The notes under the pieces are model-generated. The model searched no databases and was not told the origin of the DNA. It saw nothing but the letters and a program-made list of their open reading frames with translations. Positions 2,920 through 34,565 of a stretch of 43,027 nt of DNA are shown here, one piece after another; within the stretch, counting starts at the first letter, position 1, and each line of letters opens with the position of its first letter. The translations under genes and the position numbers were made by a program. Location: IMG/VR virus record IMGVR_UViG_3300032080_000009, positions 1-43,027 of that record. The stretch is one strand, 5' to 3'. This DNA is from a virus.

Positions 2920-3380
2920 CAGGCGCGAAGCCGAAGGCCGACCGGTCGCAGATCAGGCACCGAGTCGAAGCCGTACACGAATGGGTCGACGTCGAGAACG
3001 TGCCGTTCACCGACGCCCCGAAGCTGCCCGAGCGCGAGAAGCAGGTCTCATGGGCCGACGCCGGCGCGGTCGGCGGCTCGTGGCCGATCTCGACGCTCGC
3101 GTGGTGGCGGGACATCTCGTCGATGCCGCACGCGAAGCTCTGGACGAAGGCCGAGTGGCGCTTCGCCATCGACACGGCCGAGATCCACGCTCGCACGATG
3201 GAAGCGTGGCGCGGGTACACCGGGGCCGAGATTCGGGCCCGCGAGAAGCTGCTCGGAATGCTCGCCGACTACCGGCGCGACCTGCGTATCCGCTACGTCG
3301 AGCCGAAGGCGGCCGAAGAGCGCTCGAAGGCGGCCGATGACGCGAACGTCGTCTCGATCACGAGCCTGCGGGCGCTCTGA
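2910..3380 (+). CDS. terS: terminase small subunit (probable)
   Basis: 156 aa, first gene of the packaging operon. The segment WWRDISSMPHAKLWTKAEWRFAIDTAEIHA and the tail LRIRYVEP look like actinophage small terminases. This rests on position and recollected similarity only. Confidence 0.6.
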   Translation: MPVAGAKPKADRSQIRHRVEAVHEWVDVENVPFTDAPKLPEREKQVSWADAGAVGGSWPISTLAWWRDISSMPHAKLWTKAEWRFAIDTAEIHARTMEAWRGYTGAEIRAREKLLGMLADYRRDLRIRYVEPKAAEERSKAADDANVVSITSLRAL

Positions 3381-3643: not shown

Positions 3644-3930
3644 CCGAGAGGCTCGGCGTCGGCGAGCTCACGATGCACTTCCGTCGCTTCGTCGACGGCA
3701 CGCCGCCTGCGCGGCAGCAGATTGAGTGCGGCGTGCGAGCGGGGTGCGTGACGGCTCGACTCGAAGACGTCACGTGCGCAGGGTGCAAGCTCGTCGCGGC
3801 CGAAGCCGACAAGCGGGCCGAGCACTGCGGCTGTCGTCGCGGCGACGTCCATCGGGGGCACGCGCGTGCAGCGATCGAGATCGCCGGCCGGCTGCCCGAA
3901 TTGCTCGATGAGCTGCGGGGGCGCTCATGA
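3640..3930 (+). CDS. hypothetical protein (Cys-containing)
   Basis: ATGA overlaps on both sides. Confidence 0.65.
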   Translation: MTERLGVGELTMHFRRFVDGTPPARQQIECGVRAGCVTARLEDVTCAGCKLVAAEADKRAEHCGCRRGDVHRGHARAAIEIAGRLPELLDELRGRS

Positions 3931-4088
3931 CCGCGCACGATTGGCGTCGCGGGCGCACGCGGCGATATCGCACGTTCGGCGGCGCGGTCGTCGACGTCGA
4001 GCTCGTTTGTCGCCGCTGCGGCACGACGAAGAGTGCGGGCGATGTCGTGCGAGAGGAATGCGAGCCGCCTGCCGAGTCGGCCGAATGA
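3927..4088 (+). CDS. hypothetical small protein (53 aa, contains CRRCG)
   Basis: ATGA overlap upstream (3927) and downstream (4085). It is absent from the ORF track because it is short. Confidence 0.5.
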   Translation: MTAHDWRRGRTRRYRTFGGAVVDVELVCRRCGTTKSAGDVVREECEPPAESAE

Positions 4089-5869: not shown

Positions 5870-7360
5870 GTGGCGATCGAGTCCCGCGGCGCGGTCGTTG
5901 CGCTCGCAAAAGAGCTGCACGCGACACATCTGCGCGAGCTCGAAGAGCTCGACGTGCTGCGGCGCTACGTGACCGGCAAGCAGGCCTTGCCGCTCGTCGT
6001 CCCCCGTGACGCGCCCCGCGAGGTGCAGGAGATGGCGCGCATTTCGCGGATCAACATCATCTCGATTGTCGTGAACGCGCTCGTCGAGAGTCTCTACGTC
6101 GACAACATGCGTGCTCTCGACGACGCACCCGCGCCCGAGCTCGACCCGGAAGATCTCGACCCCACGCAGCTCGACGAGCCGGGCGACGGCGAGCAGGTCG
6201 TCTCGCGCATCTGGGAAGTCTGGCAGCGCAACAAGCTCGACCGGGGGCAGAGTGGGCTCTACCGCGCCGTCTTCACGTACGGATGGGCGTACATGGTCGT
6301 CACGAATGGCGACCCCCTGCCCGTCGTGCGACCGGTCTCGCCGCGCAGCATCACTGCGCTCTACGACGACGACCCCGATTGGCCCGTCTTCGCGCTCGAA
6401 AAGCGGCGAAACGGCAGGTGGTCGCTCTACGACGAGACGCACGTCTACTCGCTCGGCCGCGACGAAAAGGGCGACTGGACGGTGCTCGGCGAGCGCCCGC
6501 ACGGGCTCACCTACTGCCCGGTCATCCGCTACGTCGACGCCGACGATCTCGATCTCGACAACGAGCCCGAGTTCTCGCCGGCCGCGTACGCGCGGGGCGT
6601 GCAGTCGAGCATCGTCGCCGGGCAGGTCGCGCCGCTCATGACGCTGCAGGATCAGGCTGACGTTACGACGTTCTCACTGCGGGCGGCCGAGTGGTATACG
6701 GCCTTCCGGCAGCGCTGGATCGTCGGGTGGACGCCGGAGAGCAAGGCGGCGAAAGTCGCGGCCGGCGCGTCGCAGATGTGGACCTTCGACGCCGACCCCG
6801 ACGAAGTGAAGCTCGGCGAGTTCGGCGAGACGACGCTCGAAGGCTACTTGCGCTCGCGCGACGCGACGGCTCGCTTCGCGGCGACGCTCTCGCAGACGCC
6901 CGTGCATGAACTGATCGGCGAGCTCGTGAACCTCTCGGCCGAAGCGCTCGCGGCGGCCGAAGCCGGCCGTGACCGCAAGGTCGACCTGCGCAAAACGGGC
7001 AACGGTGAGAGCCACGAGCAGACGGCCGGCGCGATCGGCGACCTGCTCGGGCTCGACGTGCCCGATGACATCGAAGTCGTCTGGCGCGACACAAGCGCCC
7101 GAGCCTTCGGTGCGATCGTCGACGGGCTCGGCAAGCTCGCGCAGATGCTCGGCGTGCCGCCCGAAGCGCTCTGGGAGCGCATTCCGGGCGCGACCCGGCA
7201 GGAGATCGCCCGGTGGAAGCAGCTCGCCGCGAAGGGCGACTCGATGGCGGCGCTTACCCGGCTGCTCGATCAGCAGGCCGGCGAGACGCCGCCGACCGGC
7301 GCGCCCGGCGAGCGCACGTCACCCGGCGGCGTCATCCTGCCGCCCGGCGTGGAAGTCTGA
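5870..7360 (+). CDS. portal protein
   Basis: 496 aa, GTG start abutting the terL stop. Size and position fit, and the N-terminus LRELEELDVLRRYVTG is portal-like. Confidence 0.88.
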   Translation: MAIESRGAVVALAKELHATHLRELEELDVLRRYVTGKQALPLVVPRDAPREVQEMARISRINIISIVVNALVESLYVDNMRALDDAPAPELDPEDLDPTQLDEPGDGEQVVSRIWEVWQRNKLDRGQSGLYRAVFTYGWAYMVVTNGDPLPVVRPVSPRSITALYDDDPDWPVFALEKRRNGRWSLYDETHVYSLGRDEKGDWTVLGERPHGLTYCPVIRYVDADDLDLDNEPEFSPAAYARGVQSSIVAGQVAPLMTLQDQADVTTFSLRAAEWYTAFRQRWIVGWTPESKAAKVAAGASQMWTFDADPDEVKLGEFGETTLEGYLRSRDATARFAATLSQTPVHELIGELVNLSAEALAAAEAGRDRKVDLRKTGNGESHEQTAGAIGDLLGLDVPDDIEVVWRDTSARAFGAIVDGLGKLAQMLGVPPEALWERIPGATRQEIARWKQLAAKGDSMAALTRLLDQQAGETPPTGAPGERTSPGGVILPPGVEV

Positions 7361-8835: not shown

Positions 8836-9816
8836 GTGCCTAACACGTTTCTCAAGCCGAGCGTTATCGCTCGCGCGACCGTTGGTCTGCTCTACCGTGA
8901 GCTGACTGTCGCTCGTACCGTCTGGACTGACGCGATCAACCCGGGCGAGTTCTCGGGCGCTCTCAACGACACCGTGTCGATGCGCGTGCCGGCTCGCCGG
9001 GTCGCCCGTAAGCGCACCCTGCGCGCGGGTACCGCCATCGTCAACGACGTCTCGACCGAGTTCTCGGTGCCGGTCAAGCTCGACACCGACGTCTACAACG
9101 GCGCGCCGATCACCGACGAAGAGCTCACGCTCGACATCACCGACTTCGCCGCGCAGGTGCTCGCCCCGCAGGTGCGCGCCGTCGTCGAAGGCATCGATGA
9201 CGAGGTGATCAACGAGATCGAGAACGCCGACTACTCCGGCGGCATGATCGTCGACCCGACGAACACCGATCTCATCGTCTCGGGCCAGACTGACTGGTAC
9301 TTCGCCGCGCTGCGGGCCCGCACGAAGCTCAACGAGAAGCACGTCCCGCAGGAGGGTCGCACGCTGCTCATCGGCACGACCGTCGAAGAGAAGATCATGC
9401 GCAGCGACCGCTTCGTGCGCTTCGACTCTCGCGGCCCGGGTGCCGAGACCGCGCTCGAAGGCGCGACGATCGGTCGGATCGCCGGCTTCGACGTCGTGCT
9501 CTCGACCGAGATCGACCCCGACGACGCCTACGCTTACCACCGCTCGGCCTTCGTCGCCGCGACTCGGGCCCCGCTCGTGCCGCGTGGCGCAGCCTTCGCG
9601 CAGGTGCGCGGCGCGGCCGTCGGCATGGGTGCCAGCGAGTTCTACAACGGTCTGTCGGTCCGGTGGCTCATGGATTACGACTACACGAACACGACCGACC
9701 GCTCGCTCGTCAACACGTGGATCGGCACCGCGCAGGTGAAAGACCCCGTGGCCCCGCAGAACCCGGCGTCGGCGATGACCAACCAGCGCGCCGTCGCCAT
9801 TCGGGGTAACAGCTGA
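8836..9816 (+). CDS. major capsid protein (HK97-fold type)
   Basis: 326 aa, GTG start after AGGGGAT. Its position after the scaffold and its composition are typical. Confidence 0.85.
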   Translation: MPNTFLKPSVIARATVGLLYRELTVARTVWTDAINPGEFSGALNDTVSMRVPARRVARKRTLRAGTAIVNDVSTEFSVPVKLDTDVYNGAPITDEELTLDITDFAAQVLAPQVRAVVEGIDDEVINEIENADYSGGMIVDPTNTDLIVSGQTDWYFAALRARTKLNEKHVPQEGRTLLIGTTVEEKIMRSDRFVRFDSRGPGAETALEGATIGRIAGFDVVLSTEIDPDDAYAYHRSAFVAATRAPLVPRGAAFAQVRGAAVGMGASEFYNGLSVRWLMDYDYTNTTDRSLVNTWIGTAQVKDPVAPQNPASAMTNQRAVAIRGNS

Positions 9817-10236: not shown

Positions 10237-12942
10237 GTGACGATCACACTCGCCGGGGCAACCGGCGTCTCGACGACCGCAGCGGCGCGAGGCACGACGT
10301 CGACCACCGTTGCGTATACGGCGGTCGCGGCCGGCCGCATGGCCGTCATCACGGTCGCGATCAAGCCGAGCACCGCGACCGCAGGCACCGCGCCGTCGGG
10401 GTGGACGCAGGTCGTCAACGCCACGGGCGGCACGGGCACCGACGCGACCGGCACGGGCACGAGCCGGGTCGTGAAGTACTACCGCGAGCTCACGGGCGGC
10501 GAGACCGGCTCGGTCACGGTCACGGCGACGAGCTCGACGACCATCGAAGCAGCGATGGACGTCTACGCGAAGACGCGCGGCTCGTGGGCGACCCCGATCG
10601 GCGTCTCGGCGGCCGACACGACGCAGGGCACCAACCCGAGCGCGGCGAGCGGTACATGGGCCGAAGCGCTCAACGTCGGCGACTTCGTGCACGTCGGCTA
10701 CGCGACCAACTCGGCGAGCACGACCGCATCGAGCGCGCCGACGGTCGTGCAGGCGGGCACGACGTTCGGCACCGCGACCGCCCGCTCGCGGGTCGGCAAC
10801 TCTTCCGGCACGACCGGCTCGGTCTTCACGTGGGACGCGGCCGTCACGGGCGTGACCGCAGGCGCGGGCGCAGGCACGGGCGCGACGACGTTCGGCATGA
10901 CGTGGACGATCTCGTCTTCGGGTGCCTTCGGCGCGGTGCGCTTGCGCGAATACGACTCGATGCTCGCCGTCACCGACAACTTCGACGATGGCACGCAGAA
11001 TGCCAACGTCTACGGGCCCGACTCGTACGGCACTTTCTCGGAGTCCGGCGGCCGGCTGCGCGTCGCCATCTCGACGACCTACTCGGCGGTCTACTCACCG
11101 AATAAGTACCGCTTCGATGACATCTACTTCCGGGCGTATCCGGCGGCCGGGAATGGCGCGACGACCGAGGCTTACTCGGCATTCTGGCTCGACTCGAAGT
11201 CGCAGGCCGACGGCACCGTGCTCGGCTTTTTCTACGACGGCATTAACGATCAGCTATATCTAGCGTCATGGGTGGGCTACTCCGACGCTTCGCAGGTCGT
11301 GCTTTCCGGGGCGGCGACCGGGCATCCCTACTGGCGTCTGCTGCGCTCGGGCAGCAATGTGCTCTGGCAGACGTCGACCAACGGCTCGACATGGGTCACG
11401 CAGCGCACGGCGGCGATGCCGACATGGGTCTCGGCGGGCACCGATCTCGCGATGTGGTGGGAAGGTCACCGCGCCGAAGGCACCGCCAACAACTACGAGA
11501 TCGACAACCTGAACATCACGGCCGCGCTCGTTATCACGACGAGTGGCTCGGCCGTCGCCAACGCAACTCGCATCGCTACGAGCTCGAAGCTCGCCACCGT
11601 GGCGCGCTCGGCCGTCGCCGAAGCGACCGCCCGGGCCACGGCCGGCAAGCTGCGCGCCGTCGCCGCGAGCGCCGTCGCTGAGGCCGCCGCTCGGGCGACG
11701 ATCTCGAAGCGCGCCACGATCGCCCGCTCGGCCGTCGCTGAGGCGACCGCCCGCGCCGTTACCGTGCGGGCCCGGCTCACGATCGGCATCGCCACGGCCG
11801 AAGCTACGGCTCGCGCCGTCGCCGGCCGGCTCGTCACCGTGGCCCGATCAGCGACCGCAGAGGCGACCGCCCGGGGCGTCGCCGGCCGGCGAGTCACGAT
11901 CGCGCGCTCGGCCACGGCCGAAGCGACCGCTCGGGCGACGACCGTCACGGCTCGCGGCACGATCGGCAAGGCTGACGCCACGGCGACCGCCCGGGCAACG
12001 GCGGCGACCGCCCGGCTCACGGCGCGCAGCGCGCAGGCGACGGCCGGCGCGACCGCGACCCGTTCGACGTCTCGGGTGACCACGAGCACGGTCGTCTTCA
12101 CGGCGACCGCTCGGGGCACGGCCGGCCGGCTCGCGGCGACCGCTCGCACCGCGACCGCGCAGGCGACCGCCCGAGCGACCGCAGGCGCACGTAAGACGAC
12201 GACGGGCACCGCGAGCACAGTCGCGACGACTTCGGCCGTCACGCGCACGCTGAGGGTCACGGCGGGCCGAGCGCAGGCGGTCGCAGGCGCGAGCGCGTCA
12301 ACGGGCAACTTCGAGCAGCACCCGACCGAAGGCACGGCCGCTGCAGCGGCGACCGCCCGGGCGACGACGGCGAAGCGCGCTACGGCCGCCCGGTCGGCGA
12401 CGGCGACGGCCGGCGCGCGCAGCACGAGCGCGACCGCGCGCACGACGACCGGCCGCGCGCCGGCCGTCGCCACGGCGCGGGCGGCGACCGGTGCCGAGAC
12501 GATCATCGTCACGACCGGCTCGGCTACGGCGACCGCGACTGCTCGGGCCACGGTCGCGAAGCGGGCGGCCGTCGCACGCACGGCTGCCGCGACCGCAAGC
12601 TCGTCGGCACTCATCGCATCTCGTCGCACGAAGAGCGGCTCGGGCGTCGTCATCGCGACCGCGTACGCCACGACCGGCAACACCGAGCAGCACCCGACGA
12701 CCGGCCGAGCGCAGGCGACCGCAGGCGCACGTGCGGGCGCGCGAGGCTTCCATCGGACGACCGGCCGGGCCACGGTCGCCGCGACCGCGTCGTCTCGCCG
12801 CCCGGCGGGCACGAGTGGCCGGCCGCCGATCGTGAGCTCGACTCGCCCCGGCCGCAGCGTGACCGTGGGAGAATCGAGCAGGATTACGACAGTGACCTAC
12901 CCGCGACGCATTCTCGACGTGAGACGTCCGTACCGGGTCTAG
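10237..12942 (+). CDS. large repeat-containing virion protein (possible head or tail fibre)
   Basis: 901 aa, GTG start. It has a Thr/Ala/Gly-rich N-terminal domain and a jelly-roll/lectin-like middle segment (YWRLLRSGSNVLWQTSTNGSTW). The C-terminal ~400 aa consist of tandem 20-aa units such as VARSAVAEATARATAGKL. Confidence 0.75.
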   Translation: MTITLAGATGVSTTAAARGTTSTTVAYTAVAAGRMAVITVAIKPSTATAGTAPSGWTQVVNATGGTGTDATGTGTSRVVKYYRELTGGETGSVTVTATSSTTIEAAMDVYAKTRGSWATPIGVSAADTTQGTNPSAASGTWAEALNVGDFVHVGYATNSASTTASSAPTVVQAGTTFGTATARSRVGNSSGTTGSVFTWDAAVTGVTAGAGAGTGATTFGMTWTISSSGAFGAVRLREYDSMLAVTDNFDDGTQNANVYGPDSYGTFSESGGRLRVAISTTYSAVYSPNKYRFDDIYFRAYPAAGNGATTEAYSAFWLDSKSQADGTVLGFFYDGINDQLYLASWVGYSDASQVVLSGAATGHPYWRLLRSGSNVLWQTSTNGSTWVTQRTAAMPTWVSAGTDLAMWWEGHRAEGTANNYEIDNLNITAALVITTSGSAVANATRIATSSKLATVARSAVAEATARATAGKLRAVAASAVAEAAARATISKRATIARSAVAEATARAVTVRARLTIGIATAEATARAVAGRLVTVARSATAEATARGVAGRRVTIARSATAEATARATTVTARGTIGKADATATARATAATARLTARSAQATAGATATRSTSRVTTSTVVFTATARGTAGRLAATARTATAQATARATAGARKTTTGTASTVATTSAVTRTLRVTAGRAQAVAGASASTGNFEQHPTEGTAAAAATARATTAKRATAARSATATAGARSTSATARTTTGRAPAVATARAATGAETIIVTTGSATATATARATVAKRAAVARTAAATASSSALIASRRTKSGSGVVIATAYATTGNTEQHPTTGRAQATAGARAGARGFHRTTGRATVAATASSRRPAGTSGRPPIVSSTRPGRSVTVGESSRITTVTYPRRILDVRRPYRV
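11560..12800 (+). repeat. in-frame tandem repeat array, period 60 nt (occasionally 57 or 63), about 20 units
   Basis: Repeated strings GCCGTCGCCGAAGCGACCGCCCGGGC and variants line up in successive 60-nt sequence lines (11602, 11662, 11722 and onward). The boundaries are approximate. Confidence 0.85.
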
Positions 12943-12957
12943 TAGGGGAGCGACAGC

Positions 12958-13677
12958 GTGCAGCGATACGACCCGGGCGACAGTGCCGATCTGCGGCACA
13001 TCGTGCGCGATCTCGACGGCGCGCTCGTGGCGGCCGACGTCGACTTCGAGGTGACGAAGCCGAGCGGCGCGACCGAGCAGATCACGCCGTCGACCCCGAG
13101 CGTCGGCATCTACGACGTGACGATTCCGGCGAGCGTGCTCGACGAGCTCGGCCGCTACCGCTACGAGTGGCAGGTCTCGGGCGACGTGAGCAACACGCGC
13201 TCGGGCGCGCTCTACGTCGCCGACGCCGATGACGTCGACGAGCTGCCGCCGCTGGTCGACATCGAGCGGCTCTTCGCGAAGATCGGCTACGTGCCCGACG
13301 GGGCCGAGCTCGACCGCGCGGCCGAGCTGCTCGACGAAGCGAGCGAGCTCGTGCGCGACGTCGCCGAGAAGACGTGGACCGACGAGACGACGGGCGTCGT
13401 GACCGGCGTGCCGCGCCGCGTGCGCTCGATCGTGGTCGAAGCCGCCTACCGCGCGTTCACCAACCCGGAAGGGCTCGTACAGCGCACGATCGGCGACTCG
13501 TCGAAGTCGTGGGACCGCTCGGGGCGTGAGGGCGGGCAGATCGTCTACCTGACCGACGACGAAGAGCGCGCGGTGCGCAAGGCGGCCGGCGCGAGCTCGA
13601 TGACCGTCGCCACGCTCTACGTGCCGAACGGTGGCGGCTGCGAGCTCGATACGTGGGCGGCGGCGACCCTACAGTGA
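12958..13677 (+). CDS. head-to-tail adaptor (gp6-like connector) with an N-terminal extra domain
   Basis: 239 aa, GTG after AGGGGAG. The C-terminal half (LDRAAELLDEASELVRDVA...RSIVVEAAYRAF) is connector-like. Confidence 0.65.
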   Translation: MQRYDPGDSADLRHIVRDLDGALVAADVDFEVTKPSGATEQITPSTPSVGIYDVTIPASVLDELGRYRYEWQVSGDVSNTRSGALYVADADDVDELPPLVDIERLFAKIGYVPDGAELDRAAELLDEASELVRDVAEKTWTDETTGVVTGVPRRVRSIVVEAAYRAFTNPEGLVQRTIGDSSKSWDRSGREGGQIVYLTDDEERAVRKAAGASSMTVATLYVPNGGGCELDTWAAATLQ

Positions 13678-14021
13678 TCGGCATCTCCATGCACGAGCTA
13701 CCCGAGCGGCTCACGCATCAGCGACGGCAGACCGTACCCGATGATCTCGGCGGCGAGAGCTCGCAGCTCGTTGAACTCGGCACCGTGCCGGCGAAGGTCT
13801 CGCAGCCTGCGGCGGCCGAGCAGCTCGAAGCCGAGCAGGCGGGCTCGACCATGACGATGATCGTGCACATGATGCCCGACGCCGACGTGCGGCGCGGCGA
13901 CACGCTCGTGCGCGTCGACGGCGAGCTGCTTCGCGTGAAGTACACCATCCACCCGTCGCAGCGCGACGCCTACCTGCGCGCCGACTGCGAGCTCGTGCAG
14001 AGTGAAGGGGACGTGACGTGA
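13674..14021 (+). CDS. head closure / head-tail joining protein
   Basis: GTGA overlap with the upstream gene. It is about 115 aa. Assignment rests on position and size. Confidence 0.55.
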   Translation: MIGISMHELPERLTHQRRQTVPDDLGGESSQLVELGTVPAKVSQPAAAEQLEAEQAGSTMTMIVHMMPDADVRRGDTLVRVDGELLRVKYTIHPSQRDAYLRADCELVQSEGDVT

Positions 14022-14680
14022 CCGCGCCGACATGGGCAATCCTCGTGCCGACGATCTCGCAGCGCGAGCCGCTTTTTCTGCGCTTGCTCGTCGTGCTGCT
14101 GCCGCAGCTCGACGCGGCCGGCGGCCGGGCTCGCGTCATCGCGTGGCGCAACGACGGCGAGCCGCGACTCGCCGAAGTTCGCGACGCGATGATCAACTCG
14201 GCCGACGCCGAGTATGTGAGCTTCGTCGACGACGACGATCTCGTCTCGCCCGACTACGTGAGCAGCATCGTCGACGCGCTCGACAAACGCCCCGATCATG
14301 TCGGTTTCCGAGTCGCGTACTGCGTCGACGGCATCGAGCGCGAGATCGTCGACCACTCGCTGCAGCACGGCCGATGGCACCGCAATGCGGCCGGCCGGCT
14401 CGTGCGCGACTTCACTCACCTTGATCCGATCCGCCGTGACATCGCCACGCGCGGGCGCTTCGCCACGGCGAAGAACGGCCGCCCCGAAGATCGGGTTTGG
14501 TGCCGGCAGGTGCGCCCGTTCCTGTTCTCCGAGACGTACGTCGACGACGTGCTCTACCGCTACCTCTACTCGGAGAGCACGTCGTCGTGGCAGCGCCCCG
14601 AGCGGCTCGTGCCGTCGGCCGCGCCGCGACCGGTCGTCGATCACCCCTACTTCGAATGGCACGAGAGGTCCGACCGATGA
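14018..14680 (+). CDS. glycosyltransferase (GT-A/family 2-like)
   Basis: It has WAILVPTISQREPLFLRLL and the DxD-type motif YVSFVDDDDLVSPDY. GTGA overlap upstream. Confidence 0.8.
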   Translation: MTAPTWAILVPTISQREPLFLRLLVVLLPQLDAAGGRARVIAWRNDGEPRLAEVRDAMINSADAEYVSFVDDDDLVSPDYVSSIVDALDKRPDHVGFRVAYCVDGIEREIVDHSLQHGRWHRNAAGRLVRDFTHLDPIRRDIATRGRFATAKNGRPEDRVWCRQVRPFLFSETYVDDVLYRYLYSESTSSWQRPERLVPSAAPRPVVDHPYFEWHERSDR

Positions 14681-15420
14681 GCCGCCTACTGATGATCGTG
14701 CCGACCCGCTCGCGCCCGCAGAACGTCGAGCCGCTCGTCGCCGCGTGGCTCGATACTGGCGGTTTCCTGGCGGCCGATCTCATGCTCGTGGTCGACGTCG
14801 ACGACCCCGCCTTCGACGCCTACTGCCTCGCGGCCGAGCGGGTGAACAAGCAGCTCGCGCACTTCGGCGACGGCACGTTCATCCTGCGCTGCGCGCCCCG
14901 GCACGAGCAGCTCGTGCCGAAGCTCAACTCGGCCGCGCTTAGTGTGGCGGATGACTACGAGCTGCTCGGCTTCGCCGGCGACGACCACCTGCCGCGCACG
15001 AGCGGATGGGCGCAGCGCTTCGTGGAGCTCTTCGAGCGGAACCGCTCGGCCGGCGTCGCCTACCCTGACGATGGCTATCAGCACGAGAAGCTCGCGTCGT
15101 CATGGGTGATGCTCGCCGACGTCGTGCACGCGCTCGGCCGCATGGTGCCCGCACCCGTCGAGCATCTCTACTGCGACAACTCGATCATGGACGTCGGCCG
15201 CGAGGCGGGCTGTCTCGTCTACCTGCCCGACGTGCTCATCGAGCACGAGCACCCGGTCGCCGGCAAGCGCGAGACCGACGAGCAGTACGAGCGTGTCAAC
15301 GGCCGCGAGCAGTATCGTCGTGACCGACCGGCCTACAAGCGATGGAAGCGTGACGGCGGTCTCGTGACCGATGCCGGCATCGTGCGCGGCGTCATCGATG
15401 GGAGAGTGAGCAACGCATGA
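14677..15420 (+). CDS. glycosyltransferase (second, GT-A-like)
   Basis: Starts at internal ATG 14677 with an ATGA overlap. It has MIVPTRSRPQNVEP, VVDVDDP and FAGDDH. Confidence 0.7.
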   Translation: MSRLLMIVPTRSRPQNVEPLVAAWLDTGGFLAADLMLVVDVDDPAFDAYCLAAERVNKQLAHFGDGTFILRCAPRHEQLVPKLNSAALSVADDYELLGFAGDDHLPRTSGWAQRFVELFERNRSAGVAYPDDGYQHEKLASSWVMLADVVHALGRMVPAPVEHLYCDNSIMDVGREAGCLVYLPDVLIEHEHPVAGKRETDEQYERVNGREQYRRDRPAYKRWKRDGGLVTDAGIVRGVIDGRVSNA

Positions 15421-15959
15421 CCGAGATCTACGTCGCCAAAAACTCCGGCGTGCTGCGGGCCCCGAGCGGCGAGCAGCACCGACTTGTCGCCGGGCAGACG
15501 CTCGCCGACGGCCGGCACGAAGCCGTGACCGGCTCGCCCGACTCATGGGTGCCGATGGTCGTCGAGCTCTCGGTCGACGGCGGGCAGGGCCCGCAGGACA
15601 CCGAGGCCGATCCCGCGCTCTTCTTTGAGCGCATGACCGTCGCCGAAGCCGAGCGCGACGAGCTGCTCAACGTGCTCAACGGCATCGCGACCATTCTCGA
15701 TGAGCGCGGCCTGCTCGAAGGTGTCGATCGCGAGATGCCCGGCTGGTTGCCGCAGGCGGTCAAGCGCATCGCGAACACGCTCGCCGAGCCGCTCACCGAC
15801 GAGCCCGAGCAGGTCGTCGTCGCGGGCCCGGCCGACCCCGAGACGCCGGAGGGTCGCGCCACGATCCGCGAGTGGGCATGGGCGCAGGGACTCGAAGTCT
15901 CCGAGCGCGGGCAGCTGCCGAAGGCGGTCGTCGAAGCGTACCGGCGGAACCATGCCTAG
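15417..15959 (+). CDS. protein with a C-terminal Lsr2-type DNA-binding domain
   Basis: The C-terminus ATIREWAWAQGLEVSERGQLPKAVVEAYRRNHA matches the Lsr2 C-terminal pattern IREWA..G..VS.RG..P..V..AY. Confidence 0.7.
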   Translation: MTEIYVAKNSGVLRAPSGEQHRLVAGQTLADGRHEAVTGSPDSWVPMVVELSVDGGQGPQDTEADPALFFERMTVAEAERDELLNVLNGIATILDERGLLEGVDREMPGWLPQAVKRIANTLAEPLTDEPEQVVVAGPADPETPEGRATIREWAWAQGLEVSERGQLPKAVVEAYRRNHA

Positions 15960-16317
15960 CGTGACCATCACGGGCGAAGCCGAGCTCGCCGCGAAGATCA
16001 AAAAGATCGGCGGGCTCGTGCGCCGTGCTGCGCTCGAAGCCGTGCAGTCGGAGACGACCGAGATCGCGCAGGACATGCGGCGCAACGCCCCGCGCGAGAC
16101 GGGCACGCTCGTCGACAGCATCCAAGTCGAGATCGACGCGGGCGCGCTCGAAGGCCGGGCGGTCTCGACGGCGAAGTACACGCAGTACGTCGTGCACGGC
16201 ACGAGCGACACGGCCGCTAACGATTTCATGACGCCGGCCGCCGAGCGGTCGCGTCGCCGCTTCCCGAAGCGCGTGAAGGATGCCGTCGCCGTCGAGCTCG
16301 AAAAGCTCATCTCGTGA
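15952..16317 (+). CDS. HK97 gp10-like head-tail connector / tail completion protein
   Basis: Starts at internal ATG 15952. It has AALEAVQSETTEIAQDMRRNAPRETGTLVDSI and YTQYVVHGT. Confidence 0.65.
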   Translation: MPSVTITGEAELAAKIKKIGGLVRRAALEAVQSETTEIAQDMRRNAPRETGTLVDSIQVEIDAGALEGRAVSTAKYTQYVVHGTSDTAANDFMTPAAERSRRRFPKRVKDAVAVELEKLIS

Positions 16318-16772
16318 TCTCCACGCTGCCGCAGAACGCGGTGCAAGCGGCGATCGTCTCGCGCCTGCGGGGCGATGCCACGCTCGCCGCGCTGCTCAAG
16401 CCGATCAAGGGGCAGACGCCGCCGACGCCGGCCGTCGTCGACTTCGTGCCCGAAGGGCAGACGATGCCCTACGTCAACGTCGGCGATCACCTGTCCGTGC
16501 CCGACAACACGCACACGAGTTTCGGTCGCCGCATCACCGAGACCGTGCACGTCTGGACACGCGAGCGCAGCATGGGCCCCGGGCAGGTGATCGCGAACCG
16601 CGTCGCCGAGCTGCTCGATCACCAGGTCGCCGCGCTCTCGGCGCTGCTCGTGCCGAAGGGGCACCGCTGCGTCTCGATCCGCCTCTCTTTCGATCAGGCG
16701 CTCGACGACCCCGACCCCGAGATCAGGCATCATGTACTCAGGTTCACCATTGAGACCGCACAAGCGGCTTAG
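16314..16772 (+). CDS. tail terminator-like protein
   Basis: GTGA overlap, 152 aa. It lies immediately upstream of the major tail protein. Confidence 0.55.
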   Translation: MISTLPQNAVQAAIVSRLRGDATLAALLKPIKGQTPPTPAVVDFVPEGQTMPYVNVGDHLSVPDNTHTSFGRRITETVHVWTRERSMGPGQVIANRVAELLDHQVAALSALLVPKGHRCVSIRLSFDQALDDPDPEIRHHVLRFTIETAQAA

Positions 16773-16790
16773 CAGGAGAGAGGCGACGCG

Positions 16791-17228
16791 ATGAGCGGAC
16801 GCGACGGATTCGGTACGCTTTTTCAGCGCGCCACGACCCTTACGCCGGGCACCACGTACGAGACGATCGCCAACGTCACGAACATCGGCGGGCCCGAGCG
16901 CACCCGAGAGACGATCGACGTCACGGCGCACGACTCGCCCGGCGGGTGGATGGAGTTTCTCGGCGGGCTGAAGGATGGCGGCGAGATCTCGCTCGACGTC
17001 AACTACGACCCGGCCGAGAGCACGCACGATCTCGACGACGACTTCGACGACGCCGTGCCGCGCAACTACCGCATCGTCCTGCTGCCGGACACCGACGACG
17101 AGCACACGTGGCAGATCAAGGGGATCATGACCAACGTCGGCGATGAGTTCCCCTACGACGACAAGATGAGCCGCTCGGTCACGATCAAGGTGTCGGGCAA
17201 GCCCGACCTTACGCCGACCGGCAGCTAG
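16791..17228 (+). CDS. major tail (tube) protein
   Basis: 145 aa after GGAGAGAGG. It lies just before the chaperone/tape-measure pair and is TP901-1-like in size. Confidence 0.75.
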   Translation: MSGRDGFGTLFQRATTLTPGTTYETIANVTNIGGPERTRETIDVTAHDSPGGWMEFLGGLKDGGEISLDVNYDPAESTHDLDDDFDDAVPRNYRIVLLPDTDDEHTWQIKGIMTNVGDEFPYDDKMSRSVTIKVSGKPDLTPTGS

Positions 17229-17269
17229 TCTTACCGAGCCCCACCGATCAACTCTGGGAGAGTACGACC

Positions 17270-17665
17270 ATGCCTTTCTTGACCCGCGATGCCATTCTCG
17301 AAGCGGACGACACGAAGTACGAGACCGTCGAGTGTCCCGAGTGGGGCGGCGACGTGCGCCTGCGCTCGATCTCCGGCGCGAAGCGCGATCAGTACGAAGC
17401 CTCGCTCGTCGAAGAGCGCGGCGGCTCGCGCAAGATGAACCTGCGCAACGCGCGGGCGAAGCTCATCGTTCTCACGGCCGTCGGCGAGGACAATCGGCCG
17501 CTCTTCACGAGCGAGGATCTGCGAGCGCTCGGCAACAAGAATGCCGCCCCGCTCGACCGGCTCTTCGACGCCGCGAAGCGCCTCGCCGGCATGAGTGACG
17601 ATGACGTCGAGAAGATGACCGAAAATTTCGGCGAGACGGACGACGAAGGCGAGTCTTCCGTTTAG
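17270..17665 (+). CDS. tail assembly chaperone (G-like, zero-frame product)
   Basis: 131 aa with an acidic C-terminus, directly upstream of the tape measure. GGGAGAG lies 7 nt upstream. Confidence 0.8.
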   Translation: MPFLTRDAILEADDTKYETVECPEWGGDVRLRSISGAKRDQYEASLVEERGGSRKMNLRNARAKLIVLTAVGEDNRPLFTSEDLRALGNKNAAPLDRLFDAAKRLAGMSDDDVEKMTENFGETDDEGESSV

Positions 17666-17976: not shown

Positions 17977-19926
17977 GTGGCGACGTTGCAAGACCTGCTC
18001 ATTAAGGTCGGCATCGATCCGAAGGGCGTCGACAAGGGCGGCCGGGAGATGCAAGGCAAGCTGTCGAAGACGTGGGACGGCATGAAAAAGACGTCGATGG
18101 TCGCGGGTGCGGCGATCGGCGTCGCGGCCGGCGCGGCGATCTTGCAAGGCGTGCTCTCGGGCCTTGAAAGCGAGGTCGCGACCGACAAGCTCGCCGCGCA
18201 GCTCGGCGCGACCGGGCCCGAAGCCGAAGTGCTCGGCAAGCAGGCCGGCGACCTCTACAAAAAGGGTCTCGGCGACTCGATGGAAACGGTGTCGTCGGCG
18301 CTCGGCGCAGTGAAGACGAGCTTCGGCAATCTCGCCGACGACGCGATCGAGCCCGTCACCGAGAAGGTGCTCAATCTGGCGAAGGCCTTCGAGATCGACA
18401 CCGCCCGGGCGGCGCAGGTCGCCGGGCAGGCAGTGTCGAGCGGGCTCGCGAAAGACGCCACGAGCGCGCTCGATCTGCTCACGGTCTCGATGCAAAAGGT
18501 GCCGGCCGCCGTGCGCGAAGACCTGCTCGATGCCGTCGACGAATACGGACCATTCATGTCCGCTATCGGCATCACGGGCGAGCGCGCCTTCGGGCTGCTC
18601 ACGAAGAGCGCCGAGAAGGGCATGTACGGCATCGATAAGACCGGCGACGCGCTCAAAGAGTTCGGCATCCGGGCGACCGACATGGGCGCCGCGAGCAAGG
18701 CCGGATACGACCTGCTCGGCATGTCGCAGAAAGACATGACGGCCGAGCTGCTCAAGGGCGGCGACGCTGGGGCCGAAGCTTTCGACTCGATCATCGACGG
18801 CCTGCTCGGAATGAAAGACCCGGTGGCGCAGTCGCAAGCAGCGCTCGCGCTCTTCGGCACGCCGCTCGAAGATCTCGGCGTGACCGAGATTCCGAAGTTC
18901 CTCGGCGGGCTGCAGAACACGAAGGGCGCTCTCGGCGAGGTGGCCGGCGCGACCGACCGGCTCGGCGACACGCTCAACGACAACGCCGCCACGAAGCTCG
19001 AAGCGTTCAAGCGGCAGGCGCAAGCGGCGCTCGTCGAGCAGCTCGCGAAGGCGCTGCCGGCGATTGAGGCGGTCTTCGGGTGGATGCAAAAGAACGGCGA
19101 CGTCGTGCAGATCGTCGCGGTCGCGCTCGGCGTGCTCGCGGTCGCGCTCGGCATCGCCGCCGCTGCGCAATGGGCGATGAACAGCGCTCTACTCGCCAAC
19201 CCGATCACGTGGATCATCGTCGGTATCGTGGCGCTCGTCGCCGCGCTCGTCTACGTCGCCACGAAGACGCAATTCTTTCAAACGATCTGGCGCGCCGTTT
19301 GGGGATTCATGAAAACGGTTGGCGCATGGTTCGCCGGCCCCTTCGCCGGATTCTTTGTCAGCACGTGGAACAAGATTGTCTCGTCTTTCCAGCGTGCGCG
19401 CGGGCAGCTCTCGACGGCGATCAATGCCGTCAAGAATTTCTTCGTCTCGTGGTACAACAAGGCATCTGAGATGATCACGAAGATCATCGGTAAGGGCAAG
19501 CAACTCGCCGATTGGTTCCGAGGCCTGCCCGGGCGCATCGGCGGCTCGCTGCGAAACGTGTTCAACGGCCTATGGTCCGGTTTCCGCTCGGTCGCAAACC
19601 GCATTATTTCCGGGTGGAATAACCTGAGTTTCACGGTCGGCGGCGGCAACTTCGCAGGCGTCTCGCTGCCGAGCGTCACGGTCTCGACGCCGAACATTCC
19701 GTATCTCGCCGCCGGCGGCATCGTCACCGGGCCGACCGTCGCGATGATCGGCGAGGGTCGGCAGGACGAAGCCGTGATCCCGCTCGACCGCCTGCCCGAG
19801 CTCTCCGGCCGTGACGATCAAGTCGTCGTGCAGGTCGTGCCCGGCGGCGAGCGCGAGTTCCGTCGCTGGGTCAACAAGACGATTCGAGTGAAGGGCGCTC
19901 TCGGCCCGGCAGAGGCGGCGGTATGA
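17977..19926 (+). CDS. tape measure protein
   Basis: 649 aa, Ala/Gly/Leu-rich and helical, with internal hydrophobic segments (IVAVALGVLAVALGIAAAAQW). It follows the chaperones. Confidence 0.88.
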   Translation: MATLQDLLIKVGIDPKGVDKGGREMQGKLSKTWDGMKKTSMVAGAAIGVAAGAAILQGVLSGLESEVATDKLAAQLGATGPEAEVLGKQAGDLYKKGLGDSMETVSSALGAVKTSFGNLADDAIEPVTEKVLNLAKAFEIDTARAAQVAGQAVSSGLAKDATSALDLLTVSMQKVPAAVREDLLDAVDEYGPFMSAIGITGERAFGLLTKSAEKGMYGIDKTGDALKEFGIRATDMGAASKAGYDLLGMSQKDMTAELLKGGDAGAEAFDSIIDGLLGMKDPVAQSQAALALFGTPLEDLGVTEIPKFLGGLQNTKGALGEVAGATDRLGDTLNDNAATKLEAFKRQAQAALVEQLAKALPAIEAVFGWMQKNGDVVQIVAVALGVLAVALGIAAAAQWAMNSALLANPITWIIVGIVALVAALVYVATKTQFFQTIWRAVWGFMKTVGAWFAGPFAGFFVSTWNKIVSSFQRARGQLSTAINAVKNFFVSWYNKASEMITKIIGKGKQLADWFRGLPGRIGGSLRNVFNGLWSGFRSVANRIISGWNNLSFTVGGGNFAGVSLPSVTVSTPNIPYLAAGGIVTGPTVAMIGEGRQDEAVIPLDRLPELSGRDDQVVVQVVPGGEREFRRWVNKTIRVKGALGPAEAAV

Positions 19927-22634
19927 CCATCCGGGGCCCGTACGGCTTCGTCGCCGAAGTCGCGCCCGGGGCCGCCCCGAGCGCTTCGCCGTCGACGTGG
20001 AACTTCACGAGCGACGGCGTGCGTTGGCGGCAGCGCTCGGGCATCACGGTCTCGGCCGGCCGCGACGACGAGTCGAGCGACGTCGAAGCGGGCAGCATGT
20101 CGGCGACGTTCGATGCCCGCGACGGCCGCCTCTCGCCGCGCAACGTGCTCGGTCCGTGGTACGGGCTGATCGGCACGAACACGCCGATCCGTCTCATGCT
20201 GCCGACCGTGAACGACACGTTCGATCGCACGGTCGCTGCAGGCGGGCTCGGCTTCGAGCCGCTCTCGGGTGCCGGGTGGTCGACGGCCGGTGGCTCGGCG
20301 CTCAGCGTGAGTGGCTCGGCCGCCCGGGCGACGCTCGTGACGCAGAACACGATCGCGCTGGCGACCGTCAATCGCCCCGTCGGGGCCGAAGTCGACGTGC
20401 TCTCGACGAGCTCGGTCTCAGCCGTGCCCGTCGGCGGCAACTATGTGCACGCGACCGTCGTGCGGCGCGTGGACAGTACGCACTACTACCGGGTGCATAC
20501 CGAGTATCAGACGAGCGGCGTCGTCGGCGTCAAGATCACCCGCAACAACGGCGGAATCGAGACCGACCTCGCGAGCAACTTCGCGACCGGCATCGGCTTC
20601 GCCGCCAACACGCAGATCAAGACGCGCGTGCGCACGGTCGGCGCGTCGATCATGGTCAAGGTCTGGCAGGCGGTCAACACCGAGCCGGCCGCGTGGCAGC
20701 TCACCGCCAACGACGACGACATCGACGGCACGTTCGTCGGCATCTACGAGTGGCGCATCGGCACGAACACCGTCACGCTCTCGATGACCGACTTCGCCGT
20801 GCGCTCGGTCGTCTACGCCGGGCAGGTGCCTGAGTGGCCCGTACGGTGGCCGAGCAAGAGCGGTGCCGACTGCGTGACCCCCGTCGCGGCGTCGGGCATC
20901 CTGCGATGGCTCAAGCAGGGGCAACCGCCTCTCGAAGCGCCGATTCCGCAGCAGCTATCGAGCTACCGGCCGCAGGCCTACTGGCGGCTCGACGAAGGCT
21001 CGGGGTCGTCGAGCGCGGGCGATTCGGTCGCCTTCGGCTTCGACGCTCGCGGGCCCGAGATCACGTACGGCAACGACGACGCCCCGCCCGGCGCGATCGC
21101 GAGCGCGTCGCTCAATACGGCCGGCGTCTCGAAGCTCTCGGGCACGGTGCGCACATGGAATCTCGGCAACGGCGACGGCTCGACGATCATGTACTTCCGG
21201 CTCGGCTCGACGCCGCCCGCATCACTCACGCCGCTCTTCGAGCTGCGCACCGTCGGCGACGTCAACCGATGGGTCGTCTCGATCAGCAGTACGGCAATCG
21301 AGCTCAACTCATACGATCGCACGGGCATCGGCGTCGTGACGGGCATGTCGGGCGGGCTCGGCGTCGACGCGACGAAGTGGTGGGCGATCTCGATCGAGTT
21401 CGAAAAGTTCGGCGCGAGCGACACGATCGTGCAGCTCAACTGGCATCAGGTCGGCTCGACGACGTTCTACACGGCCGGCAGCACGCAGGTAAGCGGTCGC
21501 CTGCTCACCCGCATCTCGGACGTCTCAGTCTCGGCCCCGGTCGACAACACGCTCGTCTCTAACGTCTGGGTCGGCCCGTCGACAGTCCCCTTCGTCAACA
21601 CGAGCTTTATTCAGGTCTCGTCGGGCTTCGCGGGTGAGACCGACGTCGCCCGCATCCGCCGCGTGCTCGGGTACGCCGGCATCGAAGTCTTCGTGACGCC
21701 CGGCGTCGGCCGGCGGCTCGGCGCGCAGCCGCGTAACGCCACGGTGCTCGACGTCGTGCGCGATGCCGAGCAAGGCGGCTTCGGGCTGCTCTACGAGCGC
21801 GGCGCGGTTCTCGGCTACCTCCCGTGGTCGGCTCGGGTGAATCCGCCCGTGACGATGGCGCTCGACTGGTCGCTCGGGCATCTCGACGAAGCGCCCGAGC
21901 CGACCGACGACGATCAGCAGCTCGTGAACCGGTGGACGTCGACGCGCCCCGACGCCGGCTCGCGGGTCGCCGAAGACGAAGAGAGCATCACCCGGCACCG
22001 CGTGTACGCCGACGGCGAGGCGGTCAACGTCGAGCGCGACGAGCAGCTCGCCGACGACGCCGGGTGGCACGTCGCGATCGGCACGGTCGACTCGCTGCGG
22101 TGGCCGACGATCAAGATCAACTTGAGCCGCAACCCGAGCCTGATCTTCCCGTGGCTCGCCTGCCGCATCGGCTCGCGGATCACGATCGCCAATCTGCCCG
22201 AGCAGGTCGCCGGCGAAGTCGCCGATCTGCTCGTCGAAGGCTACGAGATCGTCATCGACACGGACTACGAGTGGACCGTCGAGATCGCCTGCTCGCCGGC
22301 GAAGCCTTGGACCGAAGTCGGCGTGTGGGGCGAGACGCGCGGCGACTCGAAGTCGTGCGAGCTCGTCGAAGACCTCACGATCTCGGAGACCGCCTGCGAC
22401 GTGCGCGCGCTCGTCTACGAGGACACGTGGGCGAATCCGGCCGCCCCGGGCGATTACTCGGTCGTCATGGCGGGCGAAGTGATGCCTGTGCAGTCGGCGA
22501 CCGCGCCCGTGCTCTCTGGCGGATACTGGACACAGACGATCACAGTGACGCGCGGCAGCGCGCTCGCGAAGGCACACGCCACGGGGGAACCTGTGCGGCT
22601 CGCCGAGCCTAAGCGTTGGGGGATGGGGTACTGA
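19923..22634 (+). CDS. minor tail protein (distal-tail/tip, 903 aa)
   Basis: ATGA overlap with the tape measure. The call rests on its large size and position. Confidence 0.75.
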   Translation: MTIRGPYGFVAEVAPGAAPSASPSTWNFTSDGVRWRQRSGITVSAGRDDESSDVEAGSMSATFDARDGRLSPRNVLGPWYGLIGTNTPIRLMLPTVNDTFDRTVAAGGLGFEPLSGAGWSTAGGSALSVSGSAARATLVTQNTIALATVNRPVGAEVDVLSTSSVSAVPVGGNYVHATVVRRVDSTHYYRVHTEYQTSGVVGVKITRNNGGIETDLASNFATGIGFAANTQIKTRVRTVGASIMVKVWQAVNTEPAAWQLTANDDDIDGTFVGIYEWRIGTNTVTLSMTDFAVRSVVYAGQVPEWPVRWPSKSGADCVTPVAASGILRWLKQGQPPLEAPIPQQLSSYRPQAYWRLDEGSGSSSAGDSVAFGFDARGPEITYGNDDAPPGAIASASLNTAGVSKLSGTVRTWNLGNGDGSTIMYFRLGSTPPASLTPLFELRTVGDVNRWVVSISSTAIELNSYDRTGIGVVTGMSGGLGVDATKWWAISIEFEKFGASDTIVQLNWHQVGSTTFYTAGSTQVSGRLLTRISDVSVSAPVDNTLVSNVWVGPSTVPFVNTSFIQVSSGFAGETDVARIRRVLGYAGIEVFVTPGVGRRLGAQPRNATVLDVVRDAEQGGFGLLYERGAVLGYLPWSARVNPPVTMALDWSLGHLDEAPEPTDDDQQLVNRWTSTRPDAGSRVAEDEESITRHRVYADGEAVNVERDEQLADDAGWHVAIGTVDSLRWPTIKINLSRNPSLIFPWLACRIGSRITIANLPEQVAGEVADLLVEGYEIVIDTDYEWTVEIACSPAKPWTEVGVWGETRGDSKSCELVEDLTISETACDVRALVYEDTWANPAAPGDYSVVMAGEVMPVQSATAPVLSGGYWTQTITVTRGSALAKAHATGEPVRLAEPKRWGMGY

Positions 22635-34469: not shown

Positions 34470-34565
34470 TGCCCGGTAGTGCCCGGTAGCTGCCCGGTTG
34501 ATTGCCCGGTACCCTGCCCGGTTATTTCCGCTGGTCAGACCGCCCTTTACCCGGTTACCCGGTTA
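34470..34565 (+). repeat. left iteron array: 5 x TGCCCGGTW and 2 x ACCCGGTTA
   Basis: Copies are at 34470, 34480, 34491, 34503 and 34515 (10-12 bp spacing), and at 34549 and 34557. Confidence 0.85.

Follow-up and report, generated by a model that had tools for sequence, protein, structure and literature searches.

What role might two predicted glycosyltransferase (GT) genes and a gene for a protein with an Lsr2-type DNA-binding domain play among the head–tail connector genes of a siphophage? The question is raised by IMG/VR record IMGVR_UViG_3300032080_000009, of which positions 1–43,027 were analyzed (this whole stretch is referred to as the window). Three + strand genes, designated here GT1, GT2 and the 180-aa gene (aa, amino acids), lie there between the genes for a head-closure protein (HCP) and an HK97-gp10-like neck protein (gp10). 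We favor the joint explanation that they occupy an accessory slot holding a glycosylation cassette together with a modular DNA-binding accessory protein, and give this a probability of roughly 45%. The slot, and the family defined by the N-terminal domain of the 180-aa protein (N-dom), are real and previously undescribed; the GT pair looks to be a fresh example of the already known virion-glycosylation cassettes, and the chimeric protein a new form of phage Lsr2 derivative.

A variable gene slot within the neck region

A first, sequence-only reading of the window placed the three genes on the + strand between the head-closure and gp10-like genes, and the list of open reading frames (ORFs) agrees (Table 1). 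It also proposed that they interrupt the usual order of connector genes, which is borne out by 10 related phages in which the head-closure gene is followed directly by the gp10-like gene. Slot content in relatives was mapped with home-made hidden Markov models on IMG/VR loci collected via GT2 (80 loci), an N-dom motif (14) or the tail-tube protein (72). The tail-tube sample is unbiased as to the slot, and both border genes are detectable in 45 of its loci. The trio GT1, GT2 and N-dom is present in 22 of these (5 with an Lsr2 domain), N-dom alone in 8 (7 with an Lsr2 domain), the GTs without N-dom in 3, and other combinations in 2; the slot is empty in the remaining 10/45, in keeping with the three genes having been inserted into the neck module. 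Within the lineage, GT-minus phages are enriched for the Lsr2-type C-terminus (7/8) and versions with a short basic tail dominate the GT-plus ones (17/22), an association that may reflect either phylogenetic structure or a functional link.

The order HCP–GT1–GT2–N-dom–gp10 is found in four other contigs (L004, L005, L007 and L008), and in L006 it differs only by a Methyltransf_21 gene between GT1 and GT2. The placement of these genes had been considered unusual, and it is indeed new for isolates, but the arrangement HCP–GT1–(x)–GT2–N-dom–gp10, where x is an intervening gene, recurs in dozens of metagenomic phages, and cluster O phages offer an earlier precedent for GT genes within structural operons. 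L003 has HCP–N-dom–gp10 with the GTs absent, and its alignment with the window shows that the two differ by a precise indel of 1.4 kb comprising the GT pair; the flanks align on either side, and the ends of the indel are the start codons of GT1 (GTGACCG) and N-dom (ATGACCG). The GT pair moves as a unit. About 35 GT2 loci of the phiAsp2 type are without N-dom, and in a Micromonospora nigra prophage and similar contigs the order N-dom–GT1–x–GT2 stands directly after the capsid gene. All contexts of the N-dom gene that we examined are head or neck modules.

Since the GT pair and N-dom each occur without the other, they are separable cargoes that often travel together, and neither appears to be a core neck component. 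The N-dom gene is missing from several of the 45 relatives with homologous border genes, so that it is not a core connector, and it is dispensable in related phages. We regard the slot, on this comparative evidence, as a variable and apparently recombination-prone accessory position in the late structural operon.

The same data bear on the proposal that the three genes constitute one system, in which the N-dom protein would be a GT adaptor, a glycosylated product, or the DNA-targeting subunit of DNA-modifying GTs. The GT2 stop and N-dom start codons share a 4-nt overlap in 30/36 loci, all 14 loci found by the N-dom motif alone have both GT1 and GT2, the trio recurs in the different structural background of the M. 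nigra prophage and similar contigs, and GT2 homologues are found among the DNA-metabolism genes of Streptomyces BE-type phages. However, 4-nt overlaps are an operon-wide norm (HCP>GT1 in 21/31 loci and gp10>Tc in 22/36) and thus have no special meaning, while 8/45 relatives have N-dom but no GTs and the phiAsp2-type loci, phiAsp2 included, have the converse. The three GT genes of phage Che8 have no annotated neighbor resembling N-dom, scans of part of the ORFs found no pathway for a glycosylatable base, and Ser and Thr are not abundant in the linker of the 180-aa protein. That the parts are found separately makes a single three-gene system improbable.

The genes had been described as translationally coupled through GTGA or ATGA overlaps. 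This holds for three junctions, between the head-closure stop and the GT1 start (GTGA, 14018–14021), the GT1 stop and GT2 start (ATGA, 14677–14680), and the GT2 stop and the start of the 180-aa gene (ATGA, 15417–15420), but not for the fourth, where the TAG stop of the 180-aa gene (15957–15959) and the gp10-like ATG (15952) overlap by 8 nt instead (ATGCCTAG). The GC content at third codon positions of the three ORFs is 0.81–0.90, and their predicted + strand reading frames are backed by all family matches. There is no excess of promoter or terminator signals within 12800–17400, and Rfam gave zero matches in the region. The overlapping start and stop codons, together with the lack of such an excess, indicate that the three genes belong to one late transcription unit.

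The glycosylation cassette is itself mosaic, with an intervening gene at 3638–4270 in L006, 4086–4733 in L009 and 5367–6008 in L010. In some relatives the gene between GT1 and GT2 is Methyltransf_21, and in the M. nigra prophage its position is occupied by a gene for a 213-aa protein that has a P-loop-like motif, GSGRCGTKYL, and looks sulfotransferase-like by eye.

The 180-aa protein joins a new N-terminal module to an Lsr2-type DNA-binding domain

The C-terminus of the 180-aa protein had been likened to the Lsr2 DNA-binding domain on the basis of a motif, and three comparisons agree with the assignment. It matches PF23359 (Lsr2_DNA-bd) at 2.3e-11, with 43.3 bits against a cut-off of 26.9; the family profile matches the solved Lsr2 C-terminal domains (6qkq, 6qkp and 2kng) at ~9e-8; and Foldseek aligns it with 2kng with a probability of 0.99 and a root-mean-square deviation of 0.6–1.1 Å. 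The equivalent of Lsr2 R84 is R151, which is invariant in the family alignment. The RGR minor-groove motif reads RGQ, the surrounding sequence being SERGQLP here and STRGRIP in Lsr2. Close relatives have RGQ, RGA, RGT, HGT or SGK at this position, and distant members have RGR, KGR or SGR.

Describing the gene simply as an Lsr2-domain gene is therefore apt for its C-terminal domain but not for the protein as a whole, which is not a canonical Lsr2; three quarters of it is a new module that occurs without Lsr2 too. The Lsr2 N-terminal oligomerization domain was not found: PF23359 is the only Pfam match at E <= 0.1, no Lsr2 N-terminal family is among the 25 of 35 Pfam families listed for 67 aligned members, and no Lsr2 N-domain structure is among the Foldseek PDB matches listed. 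The N-terminal part matches no Pfam or PHROG family, residues 1–125 correspond to no PDB fold among the Foldseek matches listed, and the structural neighbors of this part in BFVD are small uncharacterized phage proteins only.

An AlphaFold2 (AF2) model built from the 67-sequence alignment has a mean predicted local distance difference test score (pLDDT) of 91, with values of 93–98 in N-dom; a model from 14 sequences had left the N-terminal domain at pLDDT <50, and the 67 sequences resolved it. The predicted layout is of five strands and a short helix (residues 1–50), a helical hairpin (66–96 and 110–123), a low-confidence linker, and the two-helix Lsr2 domain. Conservation is greatest in N-dom, where T2, G11, R14, P16, G18, R22, G26, T28, L29, A30, H34, A36, V37, P41, W44, P46 and L51 are invariant; the hairpin has invariant L87, R97, G98, G109, W110 and L111 and is possibly a self-association element.

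Searching 5.8-billion proteins with the full-length protein returned just 14 full-length relatives, and a profile of residues 1–125 identified 83 clusters among 1.84 billion representatives. The C-termini of the aligned members vary. In 29/67 there is an Lsr2 domain, some with canonical RGR, and 38/67 end in short tails of Pro, Arg and Lys, such as PPRKR, RPRKPR and PRGRGR; Micromonospora-type N-dom proteins have a third, unclassified C-terminus with no Pfam match. Because interchangeable basic or minor-groove ends are attached to a constant N-terminal module, comparison of the members suggests that the conserved job of the tail is nucleic-acid binding, and we infer that the N-terminal module is a partner interface or a means of self-association.

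With the full 180-aa protein, tblastn against phage records identified only Arthrobacter phage Casserole gp1 (annotated as Lsr2) at E 8e-4, and the N-terminal 125 aa had no match at E <= 1 among 50,697 phage records. Pattern scans of GTDB with the 180-aa protein and N-dom alignments gave nothing real and no prophage copies of the close family; a single match in a Limnocylindria metagenome-assembled genome proved to be a spurious frame.

Comparison with Lsr2 of Mycobacterium and Streptomyces, and with full-length phage homologues, indicates that the two-helix C-terminal DNA-binding domain and the phosphate-contacting R84 equivalent are shared, whereas residues 1–125 are an unrelated beta domain plus hairpin, the oligomerization domain is lacking, and the motif is RGQ rather than RGR. 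Unlike the genes for full-length phage Lsr2, the 180-aa gene lies in a neck operon and not in a regulatory or replication region. Rearranged Lsr2 forms are known elsewhere in actinobacteriophages: in cluster J a Ku–Lsr2 C-domain fusion likewise attaches the DNA-binding domain alone to another module (PMC8612146), and N-terminal-only 'truncated' Lsr2 proteins in clusters BD, BK, EE and EH (PMC10066036) indicate that Lsr2 domains are shuffled separately. The 180-aa protein differs from these in that its partner domain is new and head/neck-specific and alternates with simple basic tails. In the literature we found no Lsr2 form described in a neck operon or with this N-terminal module, and we consider the chimera previously undescribed. 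Phage Lsr2 derivatives now include full-length, N-terminal-only, Ku-fusion and N-dom-chimera forms, the last being a case in which a phage-specific module otherwise tipped with basic tails has acquired the DNA-binding domain; the new family of ~83 clusters has been seen only in head or neck modules.

The basic-tail members are also reminiscent of Mu gp38 (DUF2635; L105 1990–2193), which has a small beta-rich part, an acidic linker and the basic tail PKKRSKSK, its gene being placed between those for the neck proteins and the tail sheath. One DUF2635 protein is among the Foldseek matches, with a probability of 0.41. Homology of N-dom to DUF2635 (PF10948) was considered and rejected: hhalign against Mu gp38 and against the DUF2635 alignment gave probabilities of <1%, and DUF2635 is absent from the 25 Pfam families listed (of 35) for the 67 members. 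A protein search with Mu gp38 returned close E. coli homologues only.

GT1 and GT2 as a putative virion-glycosylation cassette

The proposal that GT1 is a GT-A family 2-like enzyme is well supported. It matches PF00535 with 31.0 bits (cut-off 23.3; E 3e-7), over residues 39–108 only, and phrog_14775 at 4e-49; its matches to NCBIfam glycosyltransferase profiles are weak, every one falling under its cut-off. The DxD motif FVDDDD is at residues 69–74 (SFVDDDDLV), and among 10 homologues D72 and D73 are invariant and D71 and D74 are at least 90% conserved. The closest PDB sequence match is to PglI-type 9jma (E 0.006, 49 residues). By profile and motif, GT1 is a predicted family-2, GT-A-type glycosyltransferase. 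It matched 63 phage records by tblastn; it is 51% identical to phiAsp2 Pas33, and 26–30% identical to annotated glycosyltransferases of cluster F mycobacteriophages, including that encoded by Che8 gene 108. The Che8 match has an E value of 4e-11 by tblastn and 2e-18 in a pairwise comparison (28% identity over 190 aa), and covers residues 8–190 of the 391-aa gp108, its N-terminal half.

GT2 had been put forward as a second GT-A-like enzyme, and here the evidence divides. In support, it matches phrog_2675 (1e-66) and phrog_14945 ('glycosyltransferase'; 1.3e-39) and has 485 homologues at E <= 1e-5; homologues in more than 60 Streptomyces phage records are annotated as glycosyltransferases and adjoin another GT and a heptose-1-P adenylyltransferase or sugar-nucleotidyltransferase. 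The conserved motifs are PTRSRP, DxDDP, FAGDDH and EHxHP, with D40-x-D42-D43, F99-A-G-D102-D103-H104 and E189-H190 invariant, a pattern judged by eye to be GT-A-like. On the other side, GT2 has zero Pfam and zero NCBIfam matches, no PDB match was found with either a single sequence (phmmer) or a 36-sequence profile, only 1/36 homologues matches Glyco_tranf_2_3 in a Pfam scan (E 0.083), and hhalign of GT2 with GT1 is not significant. GT2 is nonetheless probably a glycosyltransferase, judging from its family matches and neighbors.

In many phages GT2 corresponds to the N-terminal third of a ~600-aa protein fused to a methyltransferase-like C-terminal part, as in phiAsp2 Pas34 (L001 8001–9791) and ~30 IMG/VR loci (among them L029, L047–L049 and L059); the 'DNA methyltransferase' label of phrog_2675 probably comes from such fusions. 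In BE-type Streptomyces phages, exemplified by MeganTheeKilla (L002 6375–8099), the GT2 homologue is accompanied by another GT and a nucleotidyltransferase, amid DNA replication and nucleotide-metabolism genes (dNMP kinase and 5' nucleotidase). The GT2 target could differ in these phages, and is possibly DNA.

What would the pair modify in the window lineage? Che8 gp108–gp110 have reportedly been connected with virion glycosylation by Freeman et al. in 2023, as related by papers that cite that work. Three other reports describe capsid glycans on Che8 virions (PMC11256854), the location of mycobacteriophage glycans at the C-termini of capsid and tail-tube subunits (PMC12619734), and the reported modification of capsid and tail tube by cluster O enzymes (PMC11600133). 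Corndog GT genes lie within the structural operon, and their enzymes are expressed in infected cells and not detected in virions (PMC4351075). Because GT1 is homologous to Che8 gp108 and the Che8 capsid is glycosylated, the preferred reading of the GT pair is a cassette for virion glycosylation of the Che8 and Corndog kind, and the virion glycosylation suggested by the sequence-only reading remains the most reasonable role. GT1 and GT2, as soluble enzymes, would be made alongside the structural proteins and, drawing on nucleotide sugars of the host, would glycosylate virion proteins in the cytoplasm while particles assemble, with the C-termini of capsid and tail-tube subunits as the precedent.

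The known systems resemble this cassette in different ways. Che8 gp108–gp110 are likewise encoded by tandem overlapping GT genes in an actinobacteriophage, GT1 is similar to the N-terminal GT domain of gp108, and window relatives add a methyltransferase, just as some cluster F records label the gp108 homologue glycosyltransferase/methyltransferase. The Che8 genes differ in being at the right end of the genome, well away from those for structural proteins, and in encoding three enzymes rather than two; no similarity of GT2 to gp109 or gp110 was detected. Corndog gp35–38 (an O-methyltransferase and glycosyltransferases) share with GT1 and GT2 the embedding of modification enzymes in the virion structural operon (PMC4351075), but are located between portal and protease rather than in the neck, with no associated DNA-binding gene. 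The closest isolated-phage homologues are phiAsp2 Pas33–Pas35: the Pas33 and Pas34 genes are adjacent and overlapping, with 46% identity between GT2 and the Pas34 N-terminus. Unlike the window, phiAsp2 has these genes after the tail genes, a methyltransferase is joined to the GT2 part in the 596-aa Pas34, another GT follows, and N-dom is lacking.

Several observations weigh against the glycosylation reading. The enzyme class of GT2 has no support from curated profiles. Relatives with the GTs and most of those without them share one tail-tube C-terminus (TGS). Among close relatives the capsid ends in GNS, SGS, NGS, DGS or DNS in GT-plus phages and in PAP in the single GT-minus one, L003 (positions 9781–9816 of the window and 1826–1861 of L003), so that this comparison offers just one contrast; in distant GT-minus phages the capsid ends in TATS, TAAS or TAES. 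Neither C-terminus tracks the presence of the GTs cleanly. The capsid C-terminal Ser is a suggestive lead as an acceptor, resting on that one contrast.

An alternative explanation is that the GT pair acts on host envelope glycans, in superinfection exclusion or release, or that GT2 is no glycosyltransferase at all. It is true that GT2 has no curated-family or solved-structure match, and that serotype-changing phage GTs are on record (cited in PMC12619734). The homology of GT1 to Che8 gp108 argues against an envelope target, as does the placement among head and tail genes of a late operon, which recurs in many phages; no integrase or lysogeny module is among the ORFs scanned, which are part of those in the genome. 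The conserved acidic and His motifs of GT2, and the sugar-metabolism genes that adjoin it elsewhere, speak for a glycosyltransferase. We consider this alternative quite improbable. Genes for base hydroxymethylation were not detected either, which makes glycosylation of DNA unlikely: the ORFs scanned, many of which in the right arm are without any match, include no thymidylate-synthase-like or hydroxymethylase gene that could supply an acceptor base.

A cassette related to Che8 gp108, with or without a methyltransferase, is thus seen to be widespread among high-GC phages that are uncultured, where it occupies a defined slot prone to recombination. Virion glycosylation has been shown recently and in few mycobacteriophages, and the window and L003 are a natural near-isogenic GT-plus/GT-minus pair.

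A further candidate glycosylation target is a 901-aa Ala/Thr-rich protein. Its gene, at 10237–12942 (+), is flanked by those for the Gp80-like head protein and the adaptor, and includes degenerate tandem repeats with a period of ~60 bp (20 aa) at 11587–11930. The sole family match of the protein is to phrog_14065, a PHROG with no assigned function, and its orthologues in L003, L004, L006 and L008 range from 308 to 823 aa, one of them with DUF4082. A head fibre or a decoration protein is a possible identity.

Possible roles of the DNA-binding protein

We tentatively propose that the 180-aa protein is a DNA-to-particle tether that is possibly packaged. This is favored because of the exclusive head/neck location of the gene, the replacement of the Lsr2 oligomerization domain by a phage-specific module, and late expression. 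The N-terminal module would dock on an assembly partner (the procapsid, the portal–neck or the packaging machinery) or self-associate, and the C-terminal element would grip DNA through the minor groove, so that phage DNA is tethered to the particle at head filling or completion; the protein may remain with the DNA. Accessory late genes of the head/neck region that link DNA or the packaging complex to the head are known, including those for the T4 gp2 DNA-end protector and the lambda gpFI packaging chaperone. Their functional logic is comparable to that of the proposed tether; no resemblance in sequence or fold was found, neither being among the Foldseek PDB matches listed.

In a packaged-protein version, N-dom would anchor in the head or neck and the Lsr2-type or AT-hook-like tail would hold the packaged genome, for example by its last-packaged end or by AT-rich islands; the protein would then accompany the DNA into the cell and protect it from host Lsr2 silencing or nucleases. 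If so, the phage would be delivering a packaged piece of host xenogeneic-silencing machinery, turned against the host. This version, on which the N-dom family would represent a new class of accessory virion-associated DNA-binding proteins, is rather doubtful.

Several findings weigh against the tether. The slot is empty in relatives that keep the neck proteins, which speaks against a core structural role, and it also holds presumably non-virion enzymes, so that position alone is no proof of particle membership. The N-terminal module is in no isolated phage of the 50,697 records, and its lineage is known from sequence alone. Replacement of both arginines of the Lsr2 RGR motif (RGR to AGA) nearly abolishes binding (PMC8476142), and since the second Arg of RGR is Gln in the 180-aa protein, its DNA affinity may be reduced. 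Phage Lsr2-like proteins have been treated as regulators or interference factors and not as virion parts (PMC8612146, PMC10066036).

Some of these findings fit a second explanation, in which the 180-aa protein is a non-virion, late nucleoid-associated or xenogeneic-silencer-type factor and the neck operon provides timing only. It would bind AT-rich DNA via the Lsr2 domain and self-associate via the N-terminal module, acting on phage islands at 34.5–35.2 kb or on host AT-rich loci; the outcome could be late silencing of early or host transcription, counter-silencing against host Lsr2, or inter-phage exclusion. The protein parallels Lsr2 and H-NS (PMC8476142) in having a linker between its structured N-terminal part and a DNA-binding domain of the minor-groove type, phage Lsr2-like proteins are common and thought to be regulatory or interfering (PMC8612146, PMC10066036), the AT-rich islands are marked (GC 0.28 and 0.33, against ~0.69 overall), the gene is accessory, and non-structural enzymes share the slot. 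However, the protein lacks the Lsr2 oligomerization domain that co-assembly with host Lsr2 would need, an entry-time counter-silencer needs early synthesis or packaging and the gene is in a late operon, the contexts examined are never a regulatory or replication region, and the RGQ variant may bind weakly in this role also. Taken together, these points make a nucleoid-type factor a serious alternative to the tether, although an unlikely one. Host Lsr2 is needed for productive mycobacteriophage infection (PMC10066036), and a late or packaged protein with the DNA-binding domain of host Lsr2 may for this reason offer a handle on phage dealings with nucleoid proteins.

Minimum GC content in 60-nt windows is 0.28 at 34543–34664, 0.33 at 35060–35152 and 0.42 at 2048–2286, the first two islands lying just downstream of the primase–polymerase gene. 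These are candidate origin or promoter regions and candidate targets of the Lsr2-type domain. The whole genome has 15 AATT sites.

Genome organization

The first 127 bases of the window are identical to positions 42901–43027, and these identical termini indicate that the assembly is circularly closed with a genome of ~42,900 bp. Overall GC content is ~0.69, and we place the lineage among roughly 40-kb high-GC siphophages. Megablast of the region against the 50,697 phage records gave zero matches, and none of these isolated phages is similar in DNA. By profile matches to Pfam and PHROG, the + strand late operon is of the standard siphophage type, its order being large terminase (3866–5869), portal (5870–7360), protease, scaffold, major capsid protein (8836–9816), Gp80-like head protein, the 901-aa repeat protein, Ad1 adaptor, head closure, GT1, GT2, the 180-aa gene, gp10-like, tail terminator, tail tube (PF16461 at 1e-12), chaperone and tape measure. 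The likely start of the head-closure gene is the GTG at 13674, as judged from 115–116-aa orthologues, the longest ORF beginning at 13653. A putative small terminase is encoded at 2910–3380. Elsewhere in the genome there are genes for an endolysin, exonuclease, primase–polymerase, DNA methyltransferase, helicase and helix-turn-helix protein.

Table 1. Features of the neck region of the window and domains of the 180-aa protein.
Feature	Coordinates	Strand	Basis or remark
Ad1 head–tail adaptor	12958..13677	+	phrog_137 7.9e-19; kept in relatives; upstream context
Hc1 head closure / head completion	13674..14021	+	PF05521 3.6e-11, phrog_25 1.1e-13; left border
GT1, 220 aa	14018..14680	+	PF00535, phrog_14775
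GT2, 247 aa, putative glycosyltransferase	14677..15420	+	phrog_2675, phrog_14945
180-aa modular DNA-binding protein (predicted)	15417..15959	+	Family alignment, AF2 model, PF23359
N-dom, residues 1–52	15417..15572	+	New five-strand plus short-helix domain; most conserved part
Helical hairpin, residues 66–123	15612..15785	+	AF2 helices 66–96 and 110–123, pLDDT ~97
Lsr2-type DNA-binding domain, residues 144–179	15846..15953	+	PF23359, PDB alignment, Foldseek
HK97-gp10-like neck / tail-completion protein	15952..16317	+	PF04883 1.6e-9, phrog_5 1.1e-19; right border
Tail terminator, gp17-like	16314..16772	+	PF11367 4.7e-17, phrog_176 8.9e-19

Downstream of the tape measure gene, a 903-aa protein is encoded at 19923–22634 (+) that matches phrog_5313 (unknown function) at 1.5e-112, and its residues 624–797 match phrog_24476, labelled phosphodiesterase, at 1.7e-45; from these matches, a distal tail protein that includes an enzymatic domain is one possibility. 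A second variable position within the same operon of relatives is marked by an HNH_3 endonuclease gene inserted between the tail-tube and chaperone genes, at 3654–4127 in L007 and 7727–8200 in L009.

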